Positions 2 through 47,857 of a DNA stretch of 62,942 bases are shown piece by piece. The stretch spans positions 1-62,942 of the forward strand of contig JBAZRE010000004.1 in NCBI GenBank assembly GCA_041663025.1, read 5' to 3'. Position 1 is the first letter of the stretch. The number at the start of each line of letters is the position of its first letter. The DNA comes from Minisyncoccota bacterium (GTDB lineage Bacteria > Patescibacteriota > Minisyncoccia > Phycocordibacterales > Phycocordibacteraceae). Under the pieces are notes generated by a model. It worked only from the letters and a program-made list of their open reading frames with translations. It had not been told where the DNA came from and did no database searches. Position numbers and translations under genes: made by a program.

Positions 2-1672
2 CTCGCACCTGATTATAAGAAGATGTATGTGCCTCTTGTTATCTTAGATCGAGGTACGGCACAAATTGGCGATAAAGTGCTCGCGCGTCTTGTCAGCTGG
101 GATGCAGATAAAGAATACCCACTCGGCACTATTGAAGAAGTTATCGGTAAAGCTGGAGTGCACGAGACCGAGATGCGCGCCCTCGCGCTCGGGCAAGGAT
201 TCTCGAGCGACTTCCCTCCCAGTGTTGTCGCCGATGCAAAATATCTTGAAGAACACGGTCGCGCGATGCTCATCGAAGAAGCTTCTAATCCGAAGCGACG
301 AGATATGCGTGACGCTCCCACCTGCACTATCGATCCATTTGATGCAAAAGACTTTGATGACGCCCTCTCGGTGAGGGCGATTGCGGATGGCAAGATAGAA
401 GTCGGTGTGCATATTGCCGACGTCTCCTTCTTCGTGAAGCCCGGTAGTGCGCTTGATAATGAGGCTGTTGAGCGCGCCACGAGCGTCTATCTGGTTGACC
501 GCACGATCCCCATGCTCCCTGAAATACTTTCGACTGATCTCTGCTCGCTGAAGCCTGATGAAGATCGTCTCGCGGTCTCTGCTATCTTCACGCTCGATGC
601 AGAGGCAAATGTTGAGGATGTCTGGTTCGGCGAGACGATTATCCATTCTGACAAGCGATTCACTTATGAAGAGGCACAAGGAGTGCTCGACACCGGCAAA
701 GGCATCTTGCATACAGAACTTTCGCTGCTCTTTGACCTATCAAAAAAGATTCGCACGCGACGTGTCGCGCGCGGTGCTGTTGAGTTTGATACTGCTGAGG
801 TAAAGGTTGAATTGGATGCTGAAGGACGACCAATCGCTATCCGTTTGAAGCAACAGCAGGCGACAAATCGCCTCATTGAAGACTTCATGCTCCTCGCCAA
901 CGAGGCCGTAGCGAAGCATCTCTCGAAGCTCACCAAGAATGGTGGACCTCACTTTGCTTCACTATATCGTATTCACGATGTGCCCGATGCAGATCGTATC
1001 GAGAATCTCATGAACCTATTGCGCGTCATGGGCTACCATCTAAAAACATCTGGGGACGGCAAAGTAACTGGTGCGGAATTAAACAAACTCATGGACGAGG
1101 TAAAGGGTAAGCCCGAGGAATATCTGGTGAAGATGGCAACACTACGCTCGATGAGCAAAGCAATCTACACTACAAAAAACATCGGCCACTTCGGTCTCGC
1201 CTTCGACTTCTACACTCATTTCACTTCTCCAATCCGCCGCTATCCTGACCTCGTGATTCATCGACTCGTGAAGGCGCACGCGGGTGGCGATCCCATCACT
1301 CCGGCAGAGATGCAAGAGTTTGATACACTCGCGATCCACGCTTCTGAGAGAGAAGTTGCTGCTTCAACTGCCGAACGCGATTCGATCAAGATGAAGCAGG
1401 TGGAGTTCCTCGCGGGCAGAATTGGTGAAGAATTTGACGCGGTTATCTCCGGCGTCACCGAGCGCGGTCTCTACGTCGAAGAAAAGGGGACCCATGCCGA
1501 CGGTATGATTCGCGTCAAAGATGTCGGTAATGACTATTTTGAATACGACGAGAAGCACTATCGCCTCATCGGCAAGCGCACTGGCAAATCGTACCAACTC
1601 GGCGACCCCATACGCGTCAAGCTCGCCGCTGCTCGCCTCGCTGAAAAAGAACTGGATTTTATCCCCGTTTAG
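2..1672 (+). CDS. rnr: Exoribonuclease R / RNase II family (RNB domain + C-terminal S1), 5'-partial
   Basis: ORF 23..1672, with the frame open back to the window edge (LAPDYKK precedes the first ATG). RNB-type motifs DPFDAKDFDDALSV and HFGLAFDFYTHFTSPIRRYPDLVIHR; S1-like C-terminus. Confidence 0.85.
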   Translation, partial: LAPDYKKMYVPLVILDRGTAQIGDKVLARLVSWDADKEYPLGTIEEVIGKAGVHETEMRALALGQGFSSDFPPSVVADAKYLEEHGRAMLIEEASNPKRRDMRDAPTCTIDPFDAKDFDDALSVRAIADGKIEVGVHIADVSFFVKPGSALDNEAVERATSVYLVDRTIPMLPEILSTDLCSLKPDEDRLAVSAIFTLDAEANVEDVWFGETIIHSDKRFTYEEAQGVLDTGKGILHTELSLLFDLSKKIRTRRVARGAVEFDTAEVKVELDAEGRPIAIRLKQQQATNRLIEDFMLLANEAVAKHLSKLTKNGGPHFASLYRIHDVPDADRIENLMNLLRVMGYHLKTSGDGKVTGAELNKLMDEVKGKPEEYLVKMATLRSMSKAIYTTKNIGHFGLAFDFYTHFTSPIRRYPDLVIHRLVKAHAGGDPITPAEMQEFDTLAIHASEREVAASTAERDSIKMKQVEFLAGRIGEEFDAVISGVTERGLYVEEKGTHADGMIRVKDVGNDYFEYDEKHYRLIGKRTGKSYQLGDPIRVKLAAARLAEKELDFIPV

Positions 1673-1680
1673 TTTCCTTT

Positions 1681-1710
1681 GTGAATTATGGACATCGTAA
1701 GTCCATAGAT
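1681..1710. repeat. REP-like hairpin family A, copy 1 (30-nt unit GTGAATTATGGACATCGTAAGTCCATAGAT; stem TATGGAC/GTCCATA at 1687..1707)
   Basis: Identical 30-nt unit recurs at 2398..2427. Perfect 7-bp stem with a 7-nt loop. Lies 8 nt after the rnr stop codon. Confidence 0.85.
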
Positions 1711-1726
1711 GCGCTATGCTGTGGAT

Positions 1727-2401
1727 ATGGAACTTTGGCATGCGCTTAATCGCGGAGTAGACGGACGAGATTTATTCATGGACGATCGTGATCGTCTCCG
1801 CTTCATTCATGATCTTTACGAATTTGACGACACAGAACCTGCCAATCCAAACGTCGGCTATCACTTCAAATCTATGGACATCGTAAGTCCATATATCAAT
1901 AAACGGTCACGGACTCGTCTCGTTGAAATCCACGGTTGGTGTCTGATGAAAAATCATTATCATCTTCTTATGTCTGAGCTTATGGAGGGCGGTCTTTCAC
2001 TTTTTTTGCGAAAATTGAACGTTGGGTATGCAAAATCGTTCAACGAAAAATATGGACGGGTCGGGACTCTGTTCCAAAGCCGTACGAAAAAGATACTTAT
2101 CGAGAATGACGCACACTTTAATTACATTCTCCATTATATTCATCTCAATCCACTCGATTATCTTGCCGGAGCAGAGGCATGGAGAGAACGCAGTCATGCT
2201 GGAATTGCGAATGCCAAAGATGCTTTGAATTATCTTGAGCAATATCGCTGGAGTAGTTATCTGGATTATGCAGGACAAAAGAATTTCCCTTCAATACTCA
2301 CAACGTCGATTTTCAAAGACGCGCTTGGAAATTACTCGCAATCTCTTGAGGAATATCTAGTCGGAGTGACGGAAGATCAAGAATTATTGCGCTTTGAGTG
2401 A
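1727..2401 (+). CDS. RAYT-like HUH/Y1 transposase (COG1943 / IS200-like family), paralog A
   Basis: ORF 1709..2401; the likely start is the MELWHALNRG ATG at 1727, which aligns with paralog C. HUH motif NHYHLL, Tyr motif HYIHLNPL, N-terminal WHxxNRG...LF.DDxDRxRF. The TGA stop lies inside hairpin unit 2398..2427. Confidence 0.8.
   Translation: MELWHALNRGVDGRDLFMDDRDRLRFIHDLYEFDDTEPANPNVGYHFKSMDIVSPYINKRSRTRLVEIHGWCLMKNHYHLLMSELMEGGLSLFLRKLNVGYAKSFNEKYGRVGTLFQSRTKKILIENDAHFNYILHYIHLNPLDYLAGAEAWRERSHAGIANAKDALNYLEQYRWSSYLDYAGQKNFPSILTTSIFKDALGNYSQSLEEYLVGVTEDQELLRFE
1873..1893. repeat. Family A hairpin, internal copy inside the RAYT-A ORF (encodes MDIVSPY)
   Basis: TATGGACATCGTAAGTCCATA is identical to the flanking hairpins and is read in-frame. 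Confidence 0.85.
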
Positions 2402-2427
2402 ATTATGGACATCGTAAGTCCATAGAT
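2398..2427. repeat. REP-like hairpin family A, copy 3 (same 30-nt unit as 1681..1710)
   Basis: 30/30 identity to 1681..1710. Overlaps the RAYT-A stop codon. Confidence 0.85.
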
Positions 2428-2430
2428 ACC

Positions 2431-2463
2431 AAAAAAGAATTGGATTTTGTGCCTACCGTATAG
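2431..2463 (+). other. Relic or second copy of the rnr 3' end (KKELDFVPTV*)
   Basis: aaaaaagaattggattttgtgcctaccgtatag compared with the rnr end gaaaaagaactggattttatccccgtttag (EKELDFIPV*). The two sit on either side of the RAYT-A cassette. Confidence 0.6.
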
Positions 2464-2474
2464 AAACCAATCTT

Positions 2475-2756
2475 CTATCTAATAATCCAAAAAGCAATTA
2501 GTCCAGCTATCACAAGTAGCGAAATAATTATTAAAGCTTCTCTACTTTTTGTCTTATTTTCTATTGAGATTGGTGGTTTGGGATTTGAACGGGCTTCAAC
2601 AATTTCAGAAATACCCGCCGTGATCAAAAAGAAGACTAGTGCTACAAATATCGCCACTGGACCGAAGTTAAACCCAACTGGTCCTCCAGGATTTACGATA
2701 GTGAGAATGATTGAGGCTAGAAGAAGTACAAAGGCGACACTTTTGATTATGAGCAT
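2475..2756 (-). CDS. Small integral membrane protein (hypothetical)
   Basis: 93-aa ORF with three hydrophobic helices. Confidence 0.55.
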   Translation of the reverse strand: MLIIKSVAFVLLLASIILTIVNPGGPVGFNFGPVAIFVALVFFLITAGISEIVEARSNPKPPISIENKTKSREALIIISLLVIAGLIAFWIIR

Positions 2757-2799: not shown

Positions 2800-5010
2800 T
2801 CATTTCGCCACGGCGACGGCTTCGTCAAATTTGACGGAGAGGAGCTTGGAGACGCCGTCGCCACCCATCGTGACGCCATAGAGGATACTGGTGCGACTCA
2901 TGGTCTCACGGTTGTGAGTGATAACGATAAGCTGAGAGCGCTTCGCGAGATTCTCAATCATGTCTCCATAACGGCGGCTGTTTGCCTCGTCGAGCGCGGC
3001 GTCGGTCTCATCGAGAATAAGGAATGGCGGCGGGTTCACTTGGCTCATCGCGAATATGAGCGCGATAGAGGTGAGCGCACGCTCGCCGCCTGAGAGCTGC
3101 ATCAAAGAGCGTACTTTTTTCTTTGGCAGATTGACCGCTATCTCTATACCTGCGCGTTCTTTCTCTTTTGGCTCATCGCCAAAACTTTCTTCCCTCCCCT
3201 CGTCGTCTGACTCATCTAGATCTTCGCTCTCTTCGAGAGTTAGGCGTGCACTCCCGCCATCAAACATAAGCGCGAAGTATTCGCTAAACGAGGCATTCAC
3301 TCTGGAGAGTCCTTCTGAGAAGTGCTTTGCAAGTTCAGTATCCAAATCGTGAATGAGCGCGCCCAATCCTGCCGCCGACTTTGCCAGATCCTCCAACTCA
3401 ACAGAGAGGAACGTCTCACGTTCGGAAACTTCTTTGTGTTCTTGTCGAATATCCTCGCCCATTCCTCCCGCCTCTTCCAAACGAATCTTCATGCGCTCAA
3501 GTGCGCGCTTACGATCTTCTTGGGTCTTCCTTTCTTCTTCTGGCATCTGCGCAAGCGGTTCATAAGAAATCGCACTTGTCCCAGCGAGAGCAAGCACTTC
3601 ACCCTTATCACGCTCGAGCTCCTCGGCAAGCAAAGAGAGTTCATATTCACGCGCAATGCTTCTCGCCATTTCCCCTTCTTCGTGCGCTTTCGCTTGTGCA
3701 GAATCAAGAATATGACGCCTAATCTCGCGACCAGTTTCTTCCAAAGCGAGCATGGCTTCGCGCGCCCTAGATCGCGCGAGCTCTGCTGCCTCCAACTTAG
3801 CCGAAAGTTCTGTGAACTTTTCAGCGAGGGCGGCGCTCTTCTCCTCGAGCGGATAAACTGCGCGTTCCTCTTCATCGAGCAGATTGTCATTCGGCGAGAC
3901 AAAGCGCGAGACGAAGTTCGCTACAGCTATCTTCACCGCTTCGAGTGCAGCTGCTGCCTTTTCGATGGTATGCGCTGAGTCGACTTGTTTTCCAACTTCA
4001 TCAGCGAGTGAGGTGAGATCAGCACGCGGCACCTTCGCGTATGGTTCGCGCGCGATAGTTGTTGCGCGCCGCTTCACTTCTGCAAGTGCTCCCTCGACAC
4101 GGCCAATATCTCGTGACAGCGCAGCACGTTCAGCAGATATTTCTGATACTTCATGTTCCGCCTTCTTCAACGCTTCAGTACGCTTGACTGTTTCTTGATC
4201 TGCAGAGTTCGGATCCGCGATTCGGTCAAGTTCAGCACTTGCGATCGCAAGACGCTCATTCGCATTACGTTTCTCTTCTGCGACCTTTACCTTCTCGTGC
4301 GCCAAGTATGCGTCCTCGATTGCGAAATAGGTTTGCGCTGAGCCAACAAGCTCATTTCGCAATGCATCAGCGCGCTCGAGCTTCTTTACCTGACCTTCAA
4401 GAAAGCGGAGATGCGGCGCGAGTTCTCGCCGGAGCGAATTTATTTGTGCAATATTCTCTTCGGTCTTCTCGAGTTTCTTCTGTGCCTCTTGCTTCTTAAA
4501 TTCGTACACCTTTAGCCCGAGTGCATCCTCAAGCATCGCACGTCGATCACGATTTGACGCGAGCAGTATCCGATCTGCCTCGCCTTGAGAAATAATATGG
4601 TGACCCGTCTCGCCGATATTGGCTCCAGCGAGCAACTCTTCAATATCACGTAAACGCACCCGTGAACCATTGATGGAATATTCACTCGTGCCATCACGAA
4701 AGGCGGCACGCTCAATTGCTACTTCATCAAAGTCGATCTTGAATTGTCGGCGAGCATTATCAAAGACGATAGAGACCGCCGCGCGATTCGCACGCGGCAT
4801 TGAATGTGAACCGTTAAAAATGAGATCCTCCGCGCGCTTGCCGCGCATACTCTTCATTGACTGCTCGCCGAGCGCGAAGCGGAACGCTTCGGCGACATTA
4901 CTCTTACCCGAGCCGTTTGGGCCGACAATTGCCGTCGTCGCATTCGAAAAGTCCAAGACCGTCTTCTTGGCGAACGACTTAAACCCGACTATTTCAAGCC
5001 GCTTCAGCAT
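2800..5010 (-). CDS. smc: SMC-family chromosome segregation ATPase, unusually short (736 aa, no recognisable hinge)
   Basis: N-terminal LEIVGFKSF...GPNGSGKSN Walker A; RRAMLEDALGLKVYEFKKQEA; C-terminal LSGGERALTSIALIFA...LILDETDAALD signature and Walker B. Confidence 0.8.
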   Translation of the reverse strand: MLKRLEIVGFKSFAKKTVLDFSNATTAIVGPNGSGKSNVAEAFRFALGEQSMKSMRGKRAEDLIFNGSHSMPRANRAAVSIVFDNARRQFKIDFDEVAIERAAFRDGTSEYSINGSRVRLRDIEELLAGANIGETGHHIISQGEADRILLASNRDRRAMLEDALGLKVYEFKKQEAQKKLEKTEENIAQINSLRRELAPHLRFLEGQVKKLERADALRNELVGSAQTYFAIEDAYLAHEKVKVAEEKRNANERLAIASAELDRIADPNSADQETVKRTEALKKAEHEVSEISAERAALSRDIGRVEGALAEVKRRATTIAREPYAKVPRADLTSLADEVGKQVDSAHTIEKAAAALEAVKIAVANFVSRFVSPNDNLLDEEERAVYPLEEKSAALAEKFTELSAKLEAAELARSRAREAMLALEETGREIRRHILDSAQAKAHEEGEMARSIAREYELSLLAEELERDKGEVLALAGTSAISYEPLAQMPEEERKTQEDRKRALERMKIRLEEAGGMGEDIRQEHKEVSERETFLSVELEDLAKSAAGLGALIHDLDTELAKHFSEGLSRVNASFSEYFALMFDGGSARLTLEESEDLDESDDEGREESFGDEPKEKERAGIEIAVNLPKKKVRSLMQLSGGERALTSIALIFAMSQVNPPPFLILDETDAALDEANSRRYGDMIENLAKRSQLIVITHNRETMSRTSILYGVTMGGDGVSKLLSVKFDEAVAVAK

Positions 5011-17386: not shown

Positions 17387-19183
17387 CTACCGAACTTCAT
17401 AACCTTTTTCTGCCAGCGCAGCAGTGACTTTTTGCATAATTTCGTTCACTTCTTCATCGGTCAGCGTGCGGTCGAATGATTGGAACACGAGCCGGAAGGC
17501 GAGTGATAACTTCCCTTCTTTTTCAAAGCGATCAAACTGGTCGAGACGTACCAAAATCGCTCCCGCATTATCTTGAATGATGAATTTCGTAAACCCATCA
17601 TCAGTGCCGACCGACGACCAGAAGGCGATGTCGCGCGTGATAAATGGATAGATTGAAAATGGCTGATACATGCCGAGCTGATACTTCTGCGGCTCGTAGT
17701 TCGCGTCATCTTGTATCGCGGGCAGATCTGACACCGGTTCTGAAGTTTTGATTTCGAGTTTCTCTTCATCTTTTGTAAACACAGTTCCTATTTCAAAAAG
17801 CTTCGGTTTCTCTCCCGGCGCGAGCACCAGCGGCGCGACATACTTCGCGCGCTCCATCGCCTCTTTCATATTTTCATCCAAGCTGGTGCGCAGTGCTGGT
17901 TTTGCTTTATCGAGCGGATTCGCCAATATGATGTCGCCCTTCGCGGCAAATGACTGGGTGGAGATCTCGGTGAAGCCGCGATCAATAAGAAAGTCTTTCA
18001 CTTTTTCTATTCCCTTATATCGAGCTTGATCCGGCATGTAGGACGTCGTACGTCCTACATTAGAAATCGGAAGTTCTGCTGCAGGGAGGCGATCATAGCC
18101 GAGGATGCGCCCAACCTCTTCGACGATGTCCTCGGGTATCGTGAGGTCGGTGCGTTCGAATGGTGGAGTGATCTCGAATGTTTCGTTTTTTTCTGAGTAG
18201 GGAAGTCCGAGGCGGCTAAAAACTCCCTCCATCTCTGCTTTTGTAAAATCTGAACCGAGGATGTTGTTTATCTTCTTGAGAGAGACACTCACCTTCTGCT
18301 CCTGCACAGAGCGAGCTGGATACTCATCAACAATCCCTATGACTTCCCCACCGGCGATTTCAGAAATAAGTGCGAGGACATCGCGCATGCCGTAGGCCGC
18401 GAGCTCGGGCGATGGCCGGTTTTGAAACCGAAGTGACGCATCAGTCACCAGTTTGAGCGACTGCGCTGCGCGACGAATAGTAGTGCCATCAAAATTTGCC
18501 GATTCAATAATAATGTCAGTGGTAGTCTCGTTAATTTCTGCCGCCTTACCTCCCTTCACACCCGCAATGCCGATTGCACTGTCTGCATTGGCATCAGTGA
18601 TGAGCAACACATTCTTCGGCAACACATATTCTTCACCCGATAGAATCGTCATGGTCTCACCATCTCTCGCATCGCGAACCTTGATTGCATACGCATCATT
18701 TTCTTTTTTCAGTTTTGCCGCATCAAAAGCGTGCAGCGGCTGGCCAATGTTGAGCATCACATAGTTTGTCGCATCGACGACATTGTTTATCGAACGCTGC
18801 CCCACTGCCTCGAGCGCTTCGCGCAGCCAATCAGGCGATGGTCCAACCTTTACATCCTTCATGAGTGCTCCCATATACCGTAAGCACTTTTTTTCATCTT
18901 CAATCTCTACCTTCAAATAAGGGTTTACGAGACCCTTATTTTCAACTGGCGTGCGGAGGGGATCGCTCTTCATTGGTATATTCAAAATCGCAGAGAGTTC
19001 TTTAGCGATGCCGCGATGACAGAGACAATCTGCTGCGCGATTTGGCAATACGTTCAGATCAAGCAAATCCCCTTTTCTTTCTTCTATTTCAAATGCATGA
19101 AAAGTGAATGCATCGTCTGTCTGCTCTGCCGGAGGCAATGGTTGATCAAAATATGTCTGAAGCCATTTTAGTGAGACTTTCAT
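17387..19183 (-). CDS. pheT: Phenylalanyl-tRNA synthetase beta subunit (short form, 598 aa)
   Basis: MKVSLKWLQTYF start, B3/4 and B5 regions, C-terminal FDX-ACB-like domain. 4-nt overlap with pheS. Confidence 0.85.
   Translation of the reverse strand: MKVSLKWLQTYFDQPLPPAEQTDDAFTFHAFEIEERKGDLLDLNVLPNRAADCLCHRGIAKELSAILNIPMKSDPLRTPVENKGLVNPYLKVEIEDEKKCLRYMGALMKDVKVGPSPDWLREALEAVGQRSINNVVDATNYVMLNIGQPLHAFDAAKLKKENDAYAIKVRDARDGETMTILSGEEYVLPKNVLLITDANADSAIGIAGVKGGKAAEINETTTDIIIESANFDGTTIRRAAQSLKLVTDASLRFQNRPSPELAAYGMRDVLALISEIAGGEVIGIVDEYPARSVQEQKVSVSLKKINNILGSDFTKAEMEGVFSRLGLPYSEKNETFEITPPFERTDLTIPEDIVEEVGRILGYDRLPAAELPISNVGRTTSYMPDQARYKGIEKVKDFLIDRGFTEISTQSFAAKGDIILANPLDKAKPALRTSLDENMKEAMERAKYVAPLVLAPGEKPKLFEIGTVFTKDEEKLEIKTSEPVSDLPAIQDDANYEPQKYQLGMYQPFSIYPFITRDIAFWSSVGTDDGFTKFIIQDNAGAILVRLDQFDRFEKEGKLSLAFRLVFQSFDRTLTDEEVNEIMQKVTAALAEKGYEVR
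18036..18060. repeat. Family C palindrome inside pheT (ATGTAGGACG-TCGTA-CGTCCTACAT), read in-frame as VGRTTSYM
   Basis: 10-bp arms identical to those of the copies around RAYT-C. Confidence 0.85.
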
Positions 19184-21926: not shown

Positions 21927-21999
21927 AGCCGCCTCCCCGATTCGGACGGGGGACCTTCGCTTTACAAAAGCGTTGCTCTACCAACTGAGCTAAGGCGGC
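21927..21999 (-). tRNA. tRNA-Thr (anticodon UGU), no encoded CCA
   Basis: Hand-folded cloverleaf GCCGCCT/TA/GCTC-AGTTGGTA-GAGC/A/ACGCT-TTTGTAA-AGCGA/AGGTC/CCCCG-TCCGAAT-CGGGG/AGGCGGC/T. One A:A mismatch in the anticodon stem; T-loop reads TCC rather than TTC. Confidence 0.8.
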
Positions 22000-27984: not shown

Positions 27985-30051
27985 TTATTTTTGCTCGAGC
28001 GCCTTTATTCTCGCTTTTAGATCTTCAATTTCCTTCTGCTGCGCCTTCACCGCCTCAATCAATGGACCGACGAGATTCCCGTATTGCACGGACTTGAGCC
28101 CAGTTGATGGATTAGTACTCACCAGGTCTGGATATACTTGCTCTACTTCTTGGGCGATAACGCCGACACTTGGTGTGCCGTCCTTCAACCAGTTAAACTC
28201 TACACCGCGAAGTTTGAGCACATTATCCAACGCATTTGGGAGTGTTTGAATATTCGTCTTGAGCGATGCGTCAGATGGATAAAGGAAGGATGTGGCCTGT
28301 ATATCGCCGTTTACTTGAAGCTTATATGCCGGATTATTCGTCCCGATGCCAACGAAGCCGCCGGATGCAATTCTCATCACTTCTGTATTATTGGGACTAA
28401 ACGTCATATCAACTCCAGCAACGCTGGAAAGTTCCAAGGTATTTTGTCTCCCGCCTGCGAATGCTGTTCCTATATAACTTACATAGCCTCTGCTGGCACC
28501 GCCTTCCGCGAAGATGATTTGGTTGTAAGATGATGTCGTTGGATGGTCTAATTTTATTGCTTTAGCATTGCCATAAACGTCAAGCGATTCGCTCGGACTC
28601 GCCGTCCCGATGCCAACGTTACCAGTTAGGAGTGAATTGCCTGTGACGAAGAAATTGCCATTGGCAGTTGAGCTGCTGCCATCGCTCGTGATAGTAGAAT
28701 TCCCAAGAGTAGTTCCGTTCGGCGTGTAGCGGGGGACGTAACCAACCGTGCCAGAACCTCCTATAGTCCCTCCGCCCGATGTAATGCAAGTGCCGTTCAC
28801 CTTGAAGCAGCCAGTCACATTGACATCGCCAGCGACATCAAGCTTATATGCCGGACTCGCTATCCCGATGCCGACTTTGCCGTCTGCCACCCTCATCACT
28901 TCACCATTATTCACGAAAAATGTTAATACGTTGGCGTTTCTTGTCCATATTCTATCAGTTCCATCGCCCATCGGCCCAATAACAAGATTCCCACCGTCAG
29001 CGTTAAACGACTGCGCATTGACTCCCCCATTCACGTTTAGTTCGCCACCGAGGGACACGCTTTTATCGGTGTTGAAGATGGCGCTGTAGGTGGCACAGTT
29101 GACAGACGCACAAATCTTCACTGGCCCTGAGACGCGGTAATTTATTTCAAGAGGATCGCCTGTTACGCCTGTATTTAGTGTGTCTATGTATAGATCAACG
29201 TTTTTTACTCCGTACGTTGTGTCTCCTCCGAAACCAATAACCGAGCTGGCATTCATCGTCCCGCCGGCGAGAGAGAGTGTGGAGCCCGATGCGGCAATAC
29301 AGGTGCCATTCACCTTGAAACAGCCCGTCACATTGACATCGCCTGCGACATCAAGCTTATACGCCGGGCTCATCGTCCCGATGCCGACTTTGCCGTCTGT
29401 TATCGTCATCACTTCAGCATTATTCACCAAAAACGATAGAGGAGTTGTATCTCTTGTCCAAACTCTATAGGTTCCGCTGACTGGGCCAACAACAAAATTC
29501 CCGTTTGCGATGCTGAATGATGCCGCGTTAACGGTACCGTTCACATCCAGTTTGTTTGTCGGGCTCGCTATCCCGATGCCGACGTTGCCGCTTGCCTTTA
29601 ATACGGTCAGGACATCTGAATTTGTTCCAAAACTATATAAGTTAAAGTTACTGTTCCCTATACCTCTCGTGCCAGCCAACCAATCCATCGTTGATCCAGT
29701 AGTGTATTTGATGGTAGCGCCTTCAGAAGCCGTAGGTCTGATCAACGATATCTGTGGGTCGACTCCACTCAAAGAACTTATAGTGAGCATGCTTCCCGGA
29801 ACCGCCGTACCGATGCCGACGTTGCCGAATGGCACCGAGAATCCAGTCGCAAACGTTCCGGCGGCATTCACCATCAGGTTGCCGTCTTTGCTCTGGAAGG
29901 TGTTGCTCACGTTGATTGGCGCATCGACATTCCCACTCGGCGGAGCAGAGGTTGGGCCAGTCCACGCATAGATCGTGCCGGCGAAGGCGAAGAGTCCGAT
30001 GGCGACGACGGTTATCTGGGCGACTTTGATGTATGAGTTTGTGTGGTTCAT
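27985..30051 (-). CDS. Tail-fibre-like surface protein with a C-terminal S74 / endosialidase intramolecular-chaperone-like domain
   Basis: N-terminal anchor then AWTGPTSAPPSGNV; repeated GNVGIGT modules; C-terminal DASLKTNI...LRGVEFNWL...GVIAQEVEQVYPDLV...LVGPLIEAVKAQQKEIEDLKARI. Confidence 0.75.
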   Translation of the reverse strand: MNHTNSYIKVAQITVVAIGLFAFAGTIYAWTGPTSAPPSGNVDAPINVSNTFQSKDGNLMVNAAGTFATGFSVPFGNVGIGTAVPGSMLTISSLSGVDPQISLIRPTASEGATIKYTTGSTMDWLAGTRGIGNSNFNLYSFGTNSDVLTVLKASGNVGIGIASPTNKLDVNGTVNAASFSIANGNFVVGPVSGTYRVWTRDTTPLSFLVNNAEVMTITDGKVGIGTMSPAYKLDVAGDVNVTGCFKVNGTCIAASGSTLSLAGGTMNASSVIGFGGDTTYGVKNVDLYIDTLNTGVTGDPLEINYRVSGPVKICASVNCATYSAIFNTDKSVSLGGELNVNGGVNAQSFNADGGNLVIGPMGDGTDRIWTRNANVLTFFVNNGEVMRVADGKVGIGIASPAYKLDVAGDVNVTGCFKVNGTCITSGGGTIGGSGTVGYVPRYTPNGTTLGNSTITSDGSSSTANGNFFVTGNSLLTGNVGIGTASPSESLDVYGNAKAIKLDHPTTSSYNQIIFAEGGASRGYVSYIGTAFAGGRQNTLELSSVAGVDMTFSPNNTEVMRIASGGFVGIGTNNPAYKLQVNGDIQATSFLYPSDASLKTNIQTLPNALDNVLKLRGVEFNWLKDGTPSVGVIAQEVEQVYPDLVSTNPSTGLKSVQYGNLVGPLIEAVKAQQKEIEDLKARIKALEQK

Positions 30052-33481: not shown

Positions 33482-34960
33482 ATGAGGAATATGTGGCTGC
33501 CGGTCGTGTCTGCCCTCGCGGGCATTGTCGTCTTCTTGCCGATGAATTTTTATCCGGCGGCTTTCGTCTTTCTCATTCCACTTTTTATCTTCTTCTTGCG
33601 AGAAGAGAAGCTGTGGCGACTGGTTGTTGGGGCTCTTTTATTCCGCTTGATCTTCTCCATGGGTACAGTTTATTTTACTCTTGAGCCAATCCTCTGGATT
33701 TCTTCTCTTCTCATTTTTTGCGGCCTGCCTCTCTCAATCTTCTTCTTCAAAAGACTCATCTTCAAATTTGCGGACACGGAGTGTCCGCAAATTCCTACCT
33801 CCTGCTCCTGCCTCCTGCTCGTTTCCTTGCCTTTCTTATGGACCTTCTTTGACCTCGCGCAAGCGCAGTATTCTCTTGCACCGATTTATATCGCCAGCGC
33901 CGGCAACGCACTCGGCTCTTCGCCATTTCTTGGGCTGGCAGCTCTCGGCGGGTTCGTCGTGCTCACTTTCTTCGTCGTGCTCATCAACTCACTTCTCGCA
34001 ATTCTTGTTCTGATCTGGCGGCGAAACCCCCAAGTTGCTTGGGGGTTTCGCCGCCAAGTGATTTATGTTCTGATTGCAATTATTGTTCTCCTTTTTGCTG
34101 GCTGGCAAATTGCAAGCTTCGAGCTGCGCCAGAATGCCATTGCTTATGCCGCCCTGCCGAACTCAATCAACATTGCCGCCATTTCTACCAATGGAACACT
34201 TGCTGTCGACCAGCTTGCACAACTCACACAAGAATTGGCCGGCCAGCAACTTGATCTCATCATCTTCCCCGAAGATATCCTCAACCAGCATGTAGGACGT
34301 CCGACGTCCTACATGCTGGGAAACAGCTCGACTGCTGTGTTTCAAGATCTTGCGAAAGAACTTAGCACAAATGTCCTCGCGAGCTACGACACGCTTCAAG
34401 GTACTACCAGCACATTAAAATATGGCTCGACAATCTTGTTTGACCAACAAGGAAGCATTGCCGGCATCCACAACAAAAACCGCCTCACATTCGCAGGCGA
34501 ATACTGGCCTTTCGGCAATTGGCACCCGTCTTTTTACGACTGGCTGAAGACACGGAATCCGAGCATTGGAACCTATGCAATCTTTGACCAGAAGAATGCA
34601 GACACTCCGGGCGAGCAGAATCTGCTCTCATTGGCGCTCGGAGAAAACACCGTGTCTTTTGCCGCACCCATCTGCTTGGAGATTCACTATCCGACTGATT
34701 TGGCAGCATACCGAACGCAAGGCGCGCGCTTCATAATCAACCCTTCAAGTAATCGCTGGATCGGCGGTGGTCTCTCGCATTTCTTATATCTCACAACCAA
34801 TGTAAAAAAAATAGAAAGTGTTGCTCTCCAACTGCCGATTATTTCAAGTGGCGTTGATGACTTCGCCGGCATTATTCTTCCGAATGGACAATCACAGATG
34901 CTTCCCTACCAAACAACTGGCAAAACCTACAACGTATTTTTCGGCACTGTCAGATATTAG
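33482..34960 (+). CDS. lnt: Apolipoprotein N-acyltransferase-like protein (polytopic N-terminus + CN-hydrolase domain)
   Basis: Multiple TM helices followed by IIFPEDIL (Glu), HNKNRLTFAGEYWPFG (Lys) and APICLEIHY (Cys), which resemble the Lnt E-K-C triad contexts. Confidence 0.65.
   Translation: MRNMWLPVVSALAGIVVFLPMNFYPAAFVFLIPLFIFFLREEKLWRLVVGALLFRLIFSMGTVYFTLEPILWISSLLIFCGLPLSIFFFKRLIFKFADTECPQIPTSCSCLLLVSLPFLWTFFDLAQAQYSLAPIYIASAGNALGSSPFLGLAALGGFVVLTFFVVLINSLLAILVLIWRRNPQVAWGFRRQVIYVLIAIIVLLFAGWQIASFELRQNAIAYAALPNSINIAAISTNGTLAVDQLAQLTQELAGQQLDLIIFPEDILNQHVGRPTSYMLGNSSTAVFQDLAKELSTNVLASYDTLQGTTSTLKYGSTILFDQQGSIAGIHNKNRLTFAGEYWPFGNWHPSFYDWLKTRNPSIGTYAIFDQKNADTPGEQNLLSLALGENTVSFAAPICLEIHYPTDLAAYRTQGARFIINPSSNRWIGGGLSHFLYLTTNVKKIESVALQLPIISSGVDDFAGIILPNGQSQMLPYQTTGKTYNVFFGTVRY
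34286..34318. repeat. Family C palindrome, 33-nt perfect copy inside the lnt-like gene (encodes HVGRPTSYM)
   Basis: CAGCATGTAGGACGTC-C-GACGTCCTACATGCTG, read in-frame. Confidence 0.88.
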
Positions 34961-36960: not shown

Positions 36961-37015
36961 GTCGCCCAAGTATGCCGCATCTCACCATTTTCCGCAACCT
37001 GCCGTAACTTTCCCA

Positions 37016-37040
37016 ATGTAGGACGTCCGACGTCCTACAT
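37016..37040. repeat. REP-like palindrome family C, copy upstream of RAYT-C (ATGTAGGACGTC-C-GACGTCCTACAT)
   Basis: Perfect 25-nt palindrome, 18 nt upstream of the RAYT-C start. Confidence 0.88.
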
Positions 37041-37058
37041 GAATGGTATGATTGAAGT

Positions 37059-37736
37059 GTGGAACTTTACCATGTGATAAACAGAGGGGTTGAGGGGCGT
37101 AATATTTTTCTTGATACGCAAGATTATTCGCGTTTCGTTCATGATCTTTATGAGTTCAATGACACTGCTCCAGCACTTGAATTCAATCATGCAATCTCTC
37201 GCGGTTCAAATGTAGGACGTCCGACGTCCTACATTCGTAAACGACTCGTAGACATTCATGGTTGGGAATTGATGAAAAACCATTTCCACCTTTTGCTTTC
37301 GGAGTGTATCGAAAATGGAATAACACTCTTCTTAAGTAAGATGAGTGGTTATGCGAGATACTTCAACGAACGACACGAGCGACATGGACATCTCTATCAA
37401 GGAAAAACAAAGAAAATACTTATCGCGCAGCAAGAGCATTTTCTTTATGCGCTTCATTATCTTCATTTAAATTCTCTTGATTATCTTCCTGGCGCAAAGA
37501 AGTGGCGTGAACGTGATAAAGGCATGATATCGGATATACCGAAAGCACTGGACTACCTCCAAAATTATCGTTGGAGCAGTTATCCAGACTATTGCGGCAA
37601 AAAGAATTTTCCATCAATCCTCACTACATCGCTTTTTGCTAATGCCTTTGGCACTGATTATGCATCTGCTCTGAAAGAATATCTGACGGATCGAATTACC
37701 AATGAAGATTTAGAATACATAGAATTTGAGCCGTAG
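37059..37736 (+). CDS. RAYT-like HUH/Y1 transposase (COG1943 / IS200-like), paralog C (GTG start)
   Basis: (M)ELYHVINRGVEGRNIFLDTQDYSRF, HUH motif NHFHLLL, Tyr motif HYLHLNSL. Closest to paralog A. Confidence 0.8.
   Translation: MELYHVINRGVEGRNIFLDTQDYSRFVHDLYEFNDTAPALEFNHAISRGSNVGRPTSYIRKRLVDIHGWELMKNHFHLLLSECIENGITLFLSKMSGYARYFNERHERHGHLYQGKTKKILIAQQEHFLYALHYLHLNSLDYLPGAKKWRERDKGMISDIPKALDYLQNYRWSSYPDYCGKKNFPSILTTSLFANAFGTDYASALKEYLTDRITNEDLEYIEFEP
37209..37233. repeat. Family C palindrome inside the RAYT-C ORF (encodes NVGRPTSY)
   Basis: Identical 25-mer, in-frame, at the position homologous to the family A hairpin inside RAYT-A. Confidence 0.88.
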
Positions 37737-37740
37737 AATC

Positions 37741-37765
37741 ATGTAGGACGTCGGACGTCCTACAT
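37741..37765. repeat. Family C palindrome downstream of RAYT-C, overlapping the fba stop codon
   Basis: ATGTAGGACGTC-G-GACGTCCTACAT. The last fba codon (ATG) and TAG stop (37760..37765) lie inside it. Confidence 0.88.
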
Positions 37766-38752
37766 TAGAACTGAGGAGAGTTTGGAGAGACGAGAGAGGA
37801 AAGCGGCGCGAGCAGCAGGAATGTTTTCTTCTTTCCCTCTCCAGAGTGCAAGTGCCTCTTCTTGAATGGCACGTGAGTAAGAAAAGGTCATTGGCCACGG
37901 GGCGTTAACTTCTTTCGCTCGACGGATTATCGCAGACAAGTTGTCTGTTGCCTGATCAGGCGTCTGCCCTCCAGAGAGAAAGACGATACCAGCCACTTGT
38001 GACGGGATACTCGCGACGAGTGCCGCAACAGTATCTTCGGCAACTTCTTCTGGTGTATCTTTCTTCTTGTTTTCATTGCCCGAAAGCGCCATAGAGGTCT
38101 TCACGATCACGCTGGCGCGGTCAACTGAATGTTCGGCAAGTACTGAAAAGAGTGTCTGCATCGTCTTTTCAATGGCTGCACGTGCACGCATGCGACTATG
38201 CTTCCCTTCAAGCAGTACTTCTGGCTCGAGAATAGGCACGAGACCACCCGCCTGTGCCTCCTTTGCATAATTCGCGAGCCGTTTCGCGTTCTCGTGGATC
38301 GCCATATCACTGGGCAGATGATCGCCGTCAATGCGAATAATCGCGCGCCACTTGGTAAAGATCGCACCTTGTTTCTTATATAGTGCGAGTCGTTCAGGAA
38401 GATCAAGAAGACCTTGGGTGATGAGCTCTTGCGGACTATCTTGGAGCGGCTCGGTGCCGAGATCAACCTTCACCCCCGGCAAGATGCCACGAGTCGCAAG
38501 CGATTTTGAAAATAATTTCTTATCATTTCCCTTCTGAAGAAGCGTTTCCGAAAAAAGTATGACCCCTGAGAGATATTTTTCGATTCCCTCGGTGCCAATG
38601 AAGAGATCGCGATCTTGCCGACGCATCTCTGCACTCGCGGGAATGCCATATGAAGCGAGGCGCGTTGTCGCGGAGTGCACACTCTCATCTGCAGCAAGAA
38701 TCCCTTTGCCGGATTGGAATAGTGAACGCGCCGTTGCGACAAGATCAGTCAT
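37760..38752 (-). CDS. fba: Fructose-bisphosphate aldolase, class I
   Basis: GKGILAADES motif; 330 aa. Confidence 0.75.
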   Translation of the reverse strand: MTDLVATARSLFQSGKGILAADESVHSATTRLASYGIPASAEMRRQDRDLFIGTEGIEKYLSGVILFSETLLQKGNDKKLFSKSLATRGILPGVKVDLGTEPLQDSPQELITQGLLDLPERLALYKKQGAIFTKWRAIIRIDGDHLPSDMAIHENAKRLANYAKEAQAGGLVPILEPEVLLEGKHSRMRARAAIEKTMQTLFSVLAEHSVDRASVIVKTSMALSGNENKKKDTPEEVAEDTVAALVASIPSQVAGIVFLSGGQTPDQATDNLSAIIRRAKEVNAPWPMTFSYSRAIQEEALALWRGKEENIPAARAAFLSRLSKLSSVLM

Positions 38753-45366: not shown

Positions 45367-45436
45367 GTTTGGTTCAGAATTTAGAAGTTAGAATTTTGAA
45401 TTTAGCTTCATTCTATATTCTTTATTCTGCGTTGCA

Positions 45437-47857
45437 TTAGCGGGATTTGGTGGAGCCAAGCTTGTAGAGCTGGGTGATCTCTGTTGCGGAGAGAGCGCGG
45501 TTATAAACACGGACATCGTCGATTTTGCCTACTGGCAGATTACCACTAAAAAGTGGCGATATATAAAACGGATTGTCATCAGCAACCATGTTGGCAGTTT
45601 CTGCTGGTGCCGTAAGTGTTCGGTCTACACCATTTACATAAACACGGATGGTGTCATTATTGCTGTCAAAAACACCGACTACGTGATACCAGGCATTTGG
45701 CGGGAAACTTGCTACTGAATAGTGATTCTTCCATCCCCCGGAACTAATCACAGCTACGAAAGCGCTGCTCTGATACCAGAGGCCGTAGTTAGCTGCGCTG
45801 GTGCCTTTGCCTGCGATTATTCTCCAGCTACTATTATTCACTGTCGGATAAAACCAGAGTGAAAGTGTTTCAGCTCCTACCCCATCTAAAGAATTATTCG
45901 TGTCGTTAATAGTTATTTGATCATCCACGCCATCAAGCTTGAGGGCTTGGCCGATTTTGCCGACGGTGGGAGAAGTGGTGGTGGACATTGAGATAAGCTG
46001 TCCGTTATTCCCCCCTATAACATCATTTGTCTTCCCAGTAGCCCAATTAGTATTCGGCCCGTCAAAGGTCCAGTTTGCGACGAGGCCAGAGGTGAGAGAT
46101 TTGGTCGGCGAAACAGCGACCTTCGCGGCACCGAGCTTGTAGAGCTGGGTGATCTCGCTTGCCGATAGCGCGCGATTGTAGATGCGGACTTCGTCGATGA
46201 GGCCGTTAAAACGATAATTATTGGCTGTGCTGGGGATTAGGCGACCAATCCAAAGTAAATTATTTCCTGCTGCGCTGCCACCAGAAGTTTCTGTGCCAAG
46301 AGAAACCGAAATTCCATCAATATACAATTGGGCCGTACTTCCGTCATAAGTACCGATTACATGATGCCATTTATTGTCGTCTAAATCGCTTCCCGATGAA
46401 GTCTTATATTTTTGACTTCCATAAACAACTATCGGTTTTCCAGTAGCATTAAGCCCTATCTCTCTTCTATTACCAGAACTGTCTGTATATGCCACTATTC
46501 CTGCCCAAGTTGATACTGTGCCTGATACCTTGATCCATGCGCTCATAGTATATGTGCTATTTTCATATCCTGTCCCCGTAATATAATCATTCACTCCATC
46601 GAACTTTAATCCCTGACCAATTTTGCCAACGACAGGAGAGGTAGAGGTGGACATTGAGATAAGCTGCCCGGTGTTTGTTCCTGCTGAATCAGTAGTCTTG
46701 CCAGTCGCCCAATTAGTATTTTTGCCATCGAAGGTCCAGTAGCCGACGAGGCCTAAGGTGAGAGATTTGGTGGGCGAGACGGCGATCTTGGTGCTGACGC
46801 TACTCACGACCGGTGCAGGTTCTTCGCTCCCCCACGTGCTATTGGCCGGCTCGGTGGCAACAATTTTACGAATCAGCGCGAAATCCCATTCATTAGAAAC
46901 TGCTTCGAGATAACCACCGGTATTTAAAGCCATATAGCCAGCACGCCCACCGCGCGTCCACGAATACCAAGTACCATCGTCAAAGCGACCAACTACATCA
47001 GTACCGTTATAGTAAATTTCTTCTGTATACCAAGTGTTAGCTAGAAATGTTCCGCCATTGTCTGTGCCCCAAGCCAGTGCGTCGTCCAAAAATTGATGTT
47101 TATTCTTACTTGCAAAATCATGCAGAAGATAATTTAAACCTTGTCCGTCTGCGACGGTAGTTTTTATGCTTAAGCCAATTCGCTGATCAGCTCCGCTGCC
47201 TCCGGTTATCCGATAACGTGCTCGCATGGCGACATTGTCTCCGGTCTGGCCCGTGCCGTTAACATCGGCAATAATTTTATTAGGATCTTTGTTTGTCGTG
47301 GCGGCTGTTAAAATTCCACCGGATTGAGAGGTGCTATCAACGTTATACGTTGTCCACTTATCAAGATCTAGGCTGGCGCCAGAAAAATCATCAAAAAACA
47401 AAAAAGTGTTGGCGCCGTTTGAGCCGCTGGTGGATTGGCCGGCATTGCCGTAATAAATATAAATATTTTGGTTAACAGTACTTAAATCAGCCGCGACTTC
47501 AACCCAAAAGACCGCATTGTCGCTGTCGGTTTTTGATTCTATCCAATAGTCTAGGGGGGTTGTCTCATCACTCGCCGTAAACATGACATCCGCAAAATCC
47601 GTCCGGCTGTGACTATCAAGATACACATCCCCAACGCTATCCGAGCCAGAACCATAATGCGCAGTTATCTTCATCTGATAATTGGTACCTGCCCCTGTGG
47701 CTGCATTGATAGTGTGCGATTTGCGATACGCCCACGAAGAGTTGTACCAGGCAGCCTCGGCCTGCGCTGGCAGAATGAAAAAGAGTAGTATGGGTATTAA
47801 AAAATATGCGATCCGCTTCTTAGAGCGATATACATGGTTATTTGCAGATTTTTTCAT
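45437..47857 (-). CDS. Secreted DUF2341 + LamG (concanavalin-like) repeat protein
   Basis: AWYNSSWAYRKSHTI (DUF2341-type start). Two LamG-type modules ending in IDEVRIYNRALSASEITQLY and IDDVRVYNRALSATEITQLY. Confidence 0.75.
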   Translation of the reverse strand: MKKSANNHVYRSKKRIAYFLIPILLFFILPAQAEAAWYNSSWAYRKSHTINAATGAGTNYQMKITAHYGSGSDSVGDVYLDSHSRTDFADVMFTASDETTPLDYWIESKTDSDNAVFWVEVAADLSTVNQNIYIYYGNAGQSTSGSNGANTFLFFDDFSGASLDLDKWTTYNVDSTSQSGGILTAATTNKDPNKIIADVNGTGQTGDNVAMRARYRITGGSGADQRIGLSIKTTVADGQGLNYLLHDFASKNKHQFLDDALAWGTDNGGTFLANTWYTEEIYYNGTDVVGRFDDGTWYSWTRGGRAGYMALNTGGYLEAVSNEWDFALIRKIVATEPANSTWGSEEPAPVVSSVSTKIAVSPTKSLTLGLVGYWTFDGKNTNWATGKTTDSAGTNTGQLISMSTSTSPVVGKIGQGLKFDGVNDYITGTGYENSTYTMSAWIKVSGTVSTWAGIVAYTDSSGNRREIGLNATGKPIVVYGSQKYKTSSGSDLDDNKWHHVIGTYDGSTAQLYIDGISVSLGTETSGGSAAGNNLLWIGRLIPSTANNYRFNGLIDEVRIYNRALSASEITQLYKLGAAKVAVSPTKSLTSGLVANWTFDGPNTNWATGKTNDVIGGNNGQLISMSTTTSPTVGKIGQALKLDGVDDQITINDTNNSLDGVGAETLSLWFYPTVNNSSWRIIAGKGTSAANYGLWYQSSAFVAVISSGGWKNHYSVASFPPNAWYHVVGVFDSNNDTIRVYVNGVDRTLTAPAETANMVADDNPFYISPLFSGNLPVGKIDDVRVYNRALSATEITQLYKLGSTKSR

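Follow-up and report, generated by a model that had tools for sequence, protein, structure and literature searches.

A RAYT-like cassette at the rnr-smc junction of a Minisyncoccota bacterium and the duplicated gene ends that surround it

We analyzed a stretch of DNA of 62,942 nucleotides (nt) from a Minisyncoccota bacterium (contig JBAZRE010000004.1 of NCBI GenBank assembly GCA_041663025.1; here called the window), in which a short cassette stands between the convergent genes rnr and smc and is followed by a second copy of the rnr 3' end. Positions 1681 to 2427 appear to hold a resident gene of the RAYT type (transposases that go with repetitive extragenic palindromic [REP] sequences), bounded by two hairpins predicted to be cognate to it, with a third hairpin in frame within its open reading frame (ORF). 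The duplicated unit is the whole abutting rnr-smc junction and not the rnr terminus alone, because relatives carry a relic of the smc 3' end on the other side of the cassette. On balance, and with moderate confidence, we favor an explanation in which a RAYT-like cassette settled at this abutting convergent junction, both gene ends were duplicated with its arrival, and the resulting relics were later trimmed and refreshed by allelic recombination.

RESULTS

Cassette A lies between two copies of the rnr 3' end

An earlier note made by a model from the letters of the window and their translations (the sequence-only reading) had described the end of rnr, two 30-nt units, an ORF between them, and a second rnr-like terminus; all of these coordinates were reproduced (Table 1). 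The rnr product contains RNB, CSD2, and S1 domains and matches TIGR02063 with a score of 584 bits. The unit GTGAATTATGGACATCGTAAGTCCATAGAT occurs exactly twice in the 62.9 kb (1681-1710 and 2398-2427) and not at all in shuffled sequences. As single-stranded DNA, it is predicted to form a 7-bp stem with a 7-nt loop (-4.8 kcal/mol, z = -3.2). The RAYT ORF is the only one between the repeats. Its stop codon, TGA (2399-2401), falls inside the downstream (D) unit, and use of an alternative ATG at 1709 would extend it to 230 amino acids (1709..2401). The D unit is separated from the rnr-tail relic by 3 nt (acc), and the spacer between the rnr stop codon and the upstream (U) unit contains no smc-tail relic, in contrast to the related loci L002, L124, and L134. 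A third exact copy of the hairpin core, ATGGACATCGTAAGTCCAT, which the sequence-only reading had missed, lies in frame within the ORF at 1874-1892 and encodes SMDIVSPYI (internal copy, I).

With up to two mismatches allowed, the tail motif AAAAAGAAYTGGATTTT has only two matches, both of them rnr tails, against 0.02 expected. The similarity of the duplicated tails is not due to chance, and an assembly artefact is excluded, because assemblies from NCBI, JGI, ENA, and Logan that are independent of one another show it again. A scan of positions 1600-2850 for promoters and terminators gave nothing above chance, and the cassette A hairpins are not classical terminators. At gathering thresholds, a search of the whole window against Rfam matched a single tRNA gene (21927-21999, minus strand) and nothing else.

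Both ends of the junction are duplicated in related genomes

The gene order S16, rnr, RAYT, smc is common to L002 and L005-L011, whose rnr genes are 73-88% identical to that of the window, and at least 10 genomes have the cassette in its place between rnr and smc. Cassette A is therefore not a recent arrival at this site. Where relatives lack the cassette, only 2 nt separate the stop codon of rnr from that of smc (L093, L095, L101), or the two gene ends overlap by 8 nt (L126). This native 2-nt junction is also preserved beside the cassette, on its left in L134 (rnr tail followed by smc relic) and on its right in L097 and L133 (rnr relic followed by smc).

An rnr-tail relic follows the D hairpin in the window and in L002, L005, L006 (here without a stop codon), L009, and L011; the relic of L010 is short, and L008 has none. 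Its left end varies, from -30 to -84 nt. In L002, the smc 3' end is represented on the other flank of the cassette by a relic of 69 nt directly adjoining the U unit. Likewise, an smc relic stands opposite the rnr relic in L124, L128, and L134. The L134 cassette is of type C, a more distant RAYT lineage (43-50% identical to cassette A and its paralogue in the window, cassette B) that has two flanking hairpins only and no internal copy, and it lies on the opposite strand. Beside A-type (+) and unrelated type C (-) cassettes, the smc relic ends at the same nucleotide, directly after ...CCCAT.

The fullest form of the locus reads rnr tail, smc-tail relic, cassette, rnr-tail relic, smc tail. This complete form corresponds to the native junction repeated in tandem over about 150 nt (about -84 nt in rnr to -69 nt in smc), with the cassette at the novel joint. 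The joints abut the hairpin units and no microhomology could be assigned to them; their symmetry on two sides fits a tandem duplication as well as a scar of illegitimate recombination with a homologous anchor on one side. The sequence-only reading had proposed a cassette that brings its own replacement terminus, as islands do. That proposal is not supported, given the smc relic on the other flank (L002, L124, L134), the lack of an integrase, and the variable left end of the rnr relic.

Relic and functional tails differ mainly at synonymous sites

Nearly all rnr homologues end in ...AAR[IL][AP]EKELDFVPV[V]*, and the relic in the window is nearer to this clade consensus than is the window's own functional tail (FIPV*). 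When smc relics are compared with the functional tail of the same genome, 16-20 of 69 nt differ, with 40 synonymous and 6 nonsynonymous codon differences (binomial p ~1e-15). For the rnr tails of 18 loci, the corresponding counts are 64 and 22; tails found via the RAYT gene instead of the tail pattern give 17 synonymous and 10 nonsynonymous differences (p = 4e-4). The two tails of L133 are identical over their first 37 nt and carry 11 differences, all synonymous, in their last 34 nt, a pattern that reads as a recombination mosaic. The predominantly synonymous divergence and the L133 mosaic suggest that relic and functional copies derive from diverged functional alleles via recombination. It follows that the copies evolved as coding sequence, each in its own allele, and that their time without function has been brief. 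Here the sequence-only reading fares well, since it had taken the second terminus for a genuine rnr end that once served as a C-terminus, and had offered recombination with a diverged allele as an alternative origin.

Four-fold degenerate sites of the RAYT genes are saturated among the cassette-bearing genomes (identity 0.19-0.50), and relics are about 77% identical to one another (functional tails, 74%). The relics are therefore not undisturbed leftovers of one ancient event, and neutral survival from such an event was rejected on the saturation of RAYT four-fold sites in the same genomes. Gene conversion from the genome's own functional tail was likewise rejected, as the differences between a genome's own copies are saturated at synonymous sites. 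The Leu codon is ttg in seven of seven relics (window 2431-2463, L002, L005, L006, L009, L011, and L086) and in 3 of 11 functional tails of the same set of loci (Fisher p = 0.004).

Tail duplications also enclose other cargo, or none

Further loci came from a metagenome scan for the tail-coding pattern and from cassette-free relatives of rnr. Two rnr tails surround a type C RAYT gene on the minus strand in L089/L122, L094, L097, L133, and L134. A hicA/hicB toxin-antitoxin pair lies between two rnr tails, differing at 4 of 42 nt, in L086 (5448-5950); a type C-like hairpin starts 3 nt past the second stop codon of this locus. In L113 (5532-5640), the two rnr tails are 79 nt apart with just a 38-nt hairpin (CCCCGTTAGAAAT..ATTTCTAACGGGG) between them, and in L102, L121, and L132 they enclose 220-1100 nt without a RAYT gene. 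The smc end can be duplicated as well: in L100 (11187-11330), which has no cassette, an smc-tail relic lies 2 nt past the rnr stop codon, and the functional smc tail that follows it uses very different synonymous codons. As a hotspot for cargo, the rnr-smc interval holds an HD-domain gene, hicAB, or unknown ORFs, depending on the genome. In the window, the cargo includes the ORF of a predicted membrane protein (2475..2756), a homologue of which occurs only in L005; other relatives have other genes at that place.

According to the sequence-only reading, an rnr-like second tail in cassette-free relatives would point to a simple local duplication. This is borne out in part: L086, L113, L102, L121, and L132 do carry such a tail. 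A nucleotide scan for flank duplications at 84 RAYT loci was positive for the rnr/smc group only, the exceptions being repeats of 36 nt (L039) and 14 nt (L080). Long duplications of the target are therefore not typical of the family as a whole. Similarly, cassette B, which occupies an ordinary intergenic region (the L25-aldolase interval, 12 genomes), has no relics of L25 or aldolase tails in its flanks.

The 36-nt repeat of L039, cataagccgcacgaggcggatggtttcaaacgagtg, is a perfect direct repeat (3900-3935 and 4742-4777) around another member of the family. The internal palindrome of that member was not found in its flanks by the scan, and its end units may be of a different kind.

The cassette protein belongs to a large RAYT-like family of Patescibacteria

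Profile and motif comparisons agree with the sequence-only reading that the cassette A ORF encodes a RAYT-like HUH/Y1 protein. The ORF passes PF01797 (Y1_Tnp) marginally (23.5 bits, cut-off 23, E = 6.5e-5), and many of its homologues have a precomputed match to this model. Against the NCBIfam RAYT model NF047646, it scores 41.4 bits (E = 1.2e-10), below the equivalog cut-off of 80. Its sole match among PDB sequences is E. coli TnpA_REP (4ER8, E = 0.12), in an alignment that places NHYHLL over HMHCI and HYIHLNPL over DYIYINPV; the I hairpin copy occupies the variable stretch directly before the alignable segment. A family profile searched against PDB sequences gave spurious matches only, near E = 0.1, and lost 4ER8. 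Among 25 homologues (alignment A1), H77, Y137, H139, and N141 are invariant and H79 is at least 90% conserved. NHYHLL corresponds to the metal-binding HUH motif of the Y1 superfamily, and HYIHLNPL provides, at the sequence level, its single catalytic Tyr. An AlphaFold 2 model built from the 25-sequence alignment has a mean pLDDT of 40; the order of its elements is compatible with an HUH fold, and its quality is too low for a fold search. We regard the cassette A protein as a probable HUH/Y1 relative of the RAYTs and not as an equivalog of the proteobacterial RAYT.

The family comprises at least 2810 clusters at 90% identity, and all of its named members belong to Patescibacteria (Paceibacterota, Kaiserbacteria, Minisyncoccia). 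With a family of this size, RAYT-like genes are not rare in the candidate phyla radiation (CPR). In contigs from one genome per species, we counted 289 family loci, frequently several per genome. Our literature searches, which covered Patescibacteria, Parcubacteria, and CPR, turned up no account of RAYT, REP, or IS200 elements there, and a Patescibacteria RAYT-like family with an in-frame internal hairpin is apparently undescribed so far.

Three hairpins per cassette evolve in concert

The window contains a paralogous cassette, B, whose hairpins are spaced much like those of cassette A (U to I and I to D, 194 and 531 nt in B; 186 and 531 nt in A). The site of cassette B, the L25-aldolase interval, is kept in 11 other genomes. 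At this site, the hairpins of the triple match within each genome and differ among genomes, and the three copies of a cassette therefore evolve in concert.

In a survey of 83 non-redundant family loci, a strong palindrome is present at the same ORF position in 71. It is confined to residues 37-72, where the median best score is 10, versus 5 in five other ORF windows, and the 83 loci have 61 distinct hairpin cores. The 71 loci frequently repeat their own hairpin outside the ORF: within 100 nt upstream of the ATG in 63 (typically about 20-36 nt ahead of it), within 100 nt past the stop codon in 53, and on both sides in 50. Together with the identity of U and D in cassette A, these counts support the earlier proposal that the flanking units are the putative cognate hairpins of the ORF.

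Type C cassettes at the rnr-smc site lie on the opposite strand in L133 (719-1557), L134 (116-1026), L094, L097, and L122, and their flanking hairpins are TAGGACATCGGATGTCCTA. Type C cassettes as orthologues of the window's cassette B were rejected at 43-47% identity.

Hairpin A has no copy outside cassette A in the 62.9-kb window. Hairpin B has two solo copies in the window, both in frame within genes, and 12 solo hairpins were found in 447 kb of related-locus flanks, about 1 per 37 kb. Hairpin B is palindromic, and near-identical peptides are encoded from either orientation. In comparison with PDB homologues of the pheT product, NVGRTTSYM aligns with FGEVTSGEL with a net gain of about 2 residues, an alignment that does not demonstrate a simple insertion.

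A class I aldolase-like gene (37760..38752, minus strand) has its stop codon (37760-37762) and last residues, ..VLM*, in the right flank of the cassette B D unit, ACATTAGAA. This right flank is also present at the solo copy at 18035, and the hairpin unit may therefore supply the end of the aldolase-like gene.

Elsewhere in the window, dense diverged direct repeats of 24-245 nt occur at 28300-29850, 45400-46800, and 54300-62942, many of them containing ...GTGCCGATGCCGAC.... These families are presumably repetitive modules of very large genes.

Table 1. Coordinates of the rnr-smc interval and of the hairpins and cassette of type B in the window
Feature	Position	Strand	Remarks
rnr (RNase R)	23..1672	+	5' part cut off by the window edge; functional C-terminus EKELDFIPV* at 1643-1672
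Spacer tttccttt	1673..1680		8 nt, from rnr stop codon to upstream hairpin unit
U (upstream) 30-nt unit GTGAATTATGGACATCGTAAGTCCATAGAT	1681..1710	+	exact repeat; hairpin TATGGAC-ATCGTAA-GTCCATA at 1687-1707
RAYT-like HUH/Y1 ORF, cassette A	1727..2401	+	224 amino acids; family-consensus start MELWH at 1727
I (internal) hairpin copy, cassette A	1873..1893	+	in frame; S-MDIVSPY-I
HUH motif NHYHLL, cassette A ORF	1952-1969	+	
Tyr motif HYIHLNPL, cassette A ORF	2132-2155	+	
D (downstream) 30-nt unit	2398..2427	+	same as U unit; hairpin at 2404-2424
rnr 3'-end relic, KKELDFVPTV*	2431..2463	+	33 nt; trimmed remnant, 48-84 nt long in relatives
93-amino-acid ORF, predicted membrane protein	2475..2756	-	variable cargo of the rnr-smc interval
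smc	2800..5010	-	convergent with rnr
Solo hairpin B in pheT	18035-18065	-	in frame, NVGRTTSYM
Solo hairpin B in Lnt-like ORF	34289-34319		in frame, HVGRPTSYM
Cassette B	37015..37770	+	RAYT-like paralogue ORF 37059..37736, 53% identical to A
Cassette B hairpin GTAGGACGTCSSACGTCCTAC	37018 (U), 37212 (I), 37743 (D)		I copy in frame, NVGRPTSYI

DISCUSSION

Starting from the observed anatomy of the locus, the two-sided duplication in relatives, the 2-nt native junction, the recurrence with other cargo, and the synonymous-dominated divergence with a mosaic locus, we infer a history in which insertion and duplication were a single event and the relics were refreshed by allelic recombination. In the original state, rnr and smc would have been convergent with no spacer. 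As such a junction offers no free DNA, the sole viable insertion products would be those that keep both gene ends twice. The single event could have been an insertion-coupled duplication or a rescue via homology-facilitated illegitimate recombination; unequal exchange between sister chromosomes would be another possible route to the duplication. In the window, the smc relic would since have been lost and the rnr relic trimmed to its final 33 nt (2431-2463). A relic beside an intact convergent gene would imitate the native junction, and recombination tracts from relatives may run into it and overwrite it. The relic would thus resemble a true C-terminus because the tail copies derive from, or are partly overwritten by, different functional alleles.

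Several points weigh against this explanation. Tail relics occur without any RAYT gene (rnr tails in L086, L113, L102, L121, and L132; an smc tail in L100), and junction duplication therefore does not require the cassette. Y1/IS200-type transposition (IS608) is not known to duplicate its target, and an extra step must be assumed. The synonymous excess in the rnr tails is partly a matter of ascertainment, as both the search pattern and the regular expression demand the peptide. The ttg bias is predicted neither by neutral decay nor by refreshing from functional alleles. Further, the co-divergence of RAYT and rnr is weak and not decisive (Spearman 0.38, over 130 amino acids of rnr), and the sequences do not cleanly separate vertical residence from repeated transfer. 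Finally, the event at the origin of the duplication is one that we infer and do not observe.

Two other histories concern the order and the agent of the duplication. The cassette and its arms (smc tail', rnr tail') might form a unit that leaves as a circle by recombination between tail copies and re-enters the conserved rnr-smc junction of related genomes Campbell-style; only elements with target-matching arms would spread, and so the relics would stay coding-like. The arm order smc tail', cassette, rnr tail' is exactly that of a single crossover with a circle carrying a contiguous copy of the junction, and L133, homogenized in its proximal part and diverged in its distal part, resembles a crossover with heteroduplex repair. 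The same arms surround two unrelated RAYT lineages, and the cassette is patchy in close relatives, being absent from L085 (rnr 86% identical) and present in L008 (88%) and L002 (81%). Arms of 30-84 nt that have diverged are, however, poor substrates for RecA; one arm is gone in many genomes (among them the window, L008, and L010), and in five syntenic loci RAYT identity to the window ranks like rnr identity, as under vertical descent. We consider such a host-driven unit unlikely. Somewhat less likely still is a duplication that came first, by slippage or unequal exchange at the junction, and created a neutral spacer in which RAYT genes and other cargo landed later, with no part for the cassette in the duplication. 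The cassette-free duplications (the smc tail of L100, and L113 with 79 nt between its rnr tails) and the nature of the interval as a cargo hotspot speak for it. Yet the cassettes of L002, L124, and L134 occupy the novel junction precisely, with the smc relic against one hairpin unit, the rnr relic against the other, and no spare DNA. A later, independent insertion would have needed to strike this single phosphodiester bond; otherwise, trimming would have had to bring each relic back to the very edge of the cassette.

It is very improbable that the cassette is a gene-end-restoring integrative element that uses the rnr 3' end as its attachment (att) site and brings in a replacement terminus, the two tails being attL and attR. 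In its favor are the direct repeats of the rnr 3' end around the inserted DNA, the empty single-tail sites in relatives, and the repeated occupation of one site. An integrase is missing, however, the sole ORF in 1681-2427 encoding an HUH/Y1 protein; the repeats range in length from 30 to 84 nt, and with many synonymous differences between them they lack an identical core. The tails also surround hicAB or a bare hairpin, and an att model with one gene does not predict the smc-tail relic on the opposite flank in relatives. We give equally little credence to a relic that is itself functional and under selection, whether as a 3' untranslated or termination region for the convergent gene or as a translated micro-ORF. 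The relics are conserved islands amid unalignable DNA, with wobble-type variation at the Val and Pro codons and an invariable ttg Leu codon, and smc relics begin exactly at an ATG. Against this stand the results of the promoter, terminator, and Rfam searches given above, the absence or truncation of relics in some genomes (L008 and L010; no stop codon in L006), and, in the window, the gene between the relic and smc; by reading, no Shine-Dalgarno-like sequence is seen ahead of the relic ATG.

RAYT/REP systems, in which a domesticated transposase is partnered by non-autonomous hairpins, are a textbook example, and most of those known come from proteobacteria, whose intergenic regions are roomy. 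The Patescibacteria protein has its HUH and Tyr motifs in the same order and with the same spacing as TnpA_REP (E. coli YafM, 4ER8). In both systems, the gene has a cognate hairpin on either side and a housekeeping-like, conserved chromosomal position (here rnr-smc for A and L25-aldolase for B); the properties of RAYTs, including their stable chromosomal position, are described in PMC5581495. Hairpin B begins with GTAG, the tag of many REPs (PMC3733652). Unlike the RAYTs, the Patescibacteria protein falls below the NF047646 equivalog cut-off, has a C-terminal extension of about 80 amino acids (YRWSSY...), and occurs as several paralogues per genome, each with its own hairpin. It also has the third, in-frame hairpin within the ORF, of which we found no description for RAYTs. 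REPIN populations count tens to hundreds of members, whereas here there are 0 to 2 solo copies in 63 kb.

Insertion sequences of the IS200/IS605 group (IS608, ISDra2) encode a Y1 HUH enzyme, carry a subterminal hairpin at either end, and are not known to make a short target-site duplication when they transpose. The cassettes described here share with them the Y1 HUH enzyme and a hairpin at each end of the unit (for the classification of the group, see PMC6006769). They differ in that the two end hairpins of a cassette are identical to each other, tnpB is missing, the position is syntenic over the long term, and there are no identical copies in the window, which holds two paralogues with different hairpins. 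Long duplication of flanking gene ends is no feature of IS200/IS605 either.

The rhs, contact-dependent inhibition (CDI), and type VI secretion system (T6SS) effector loci offer a parallel for the relics. At these loci, incoming DNA that carries a homologous anchor provides a new functional 3' end, and the old 3' end, from a different allele, is displaced downstream as an orphan; this C-terminal displacement is attributed to homology-facilitated illegitimate recombination (PMC5361080, which cites PMC2935791, PMC122324, and PMC122325). The rnr-smc locus likewise has an orphan 3' fragment downstream of an intact gene, with copies from different alleles. In contrast to rhs, CDI, and T6SS, the displaced ends here code for the same conserved peptide and not for polymorphic toxins, both convergent genes are affected, and a hairpin-bounded RAYT cassette is often found at the joint. 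Integrative islands at tRNA, tmRNA, or protein-gene att sites also leave the gene intact and a partial 3'-end direct repeat around the insert; here, by contrast, an integrase is lacking, the repeat is of variable length without an identical core, and the end of the convergent neighbor is duplicated on the opposite side. The Rickettsia palindromic elements (RPEs) of Ogata et al. (2000) reportedly insert in frame in protein-coding genes. The hairpins described here resemble them as short in-frame palindromes in essential genes (pheT, the Lnt-like ORF, and the RAYT genes themselves), and differ in being much shorter (about 27 nt, 9 codons) and in their predicted tie to a cognate HUH gene. PMC1779305 also refers to RPEs.

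The family shows how a RAYT/REP-like system fits into streamlined CPR genomes with almost no spacer DNA. Hairpins are housed inside coding sequence, including the enzyme's own gene, and where the cassette lies between touching genes, both gene ends are doubled. In their synonymous divergence, the duplicated ends preserve a compact and readable trace of how diverged alleles have recombined in uncultivated bacteria, and this trace could mark gene flow. For annotation, it carries a warning that short "second C-termini" beside mobile cassettes are recombination scars and not att sites. More speculatively, the in-frame copy could be a "master" hairpin held by a RAYT subfamily across Patescibacteria, with the enzyme or hairpin-directed gene conversion keeping the flanking copies and the few dispersed ones identical; some of the latter would have been placed in frame within essential genes (pheT is an example). 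Where convergent genes abut, the cassette and the duplicated ends would then be a unit excised and re-integrated by host homologous recombination. We regard this wider proposal as unlikely. If true, a master hairpin combined with a recombination unit would give a transposase-like gene the means to persist and to move where intergenic DNA is scarce.

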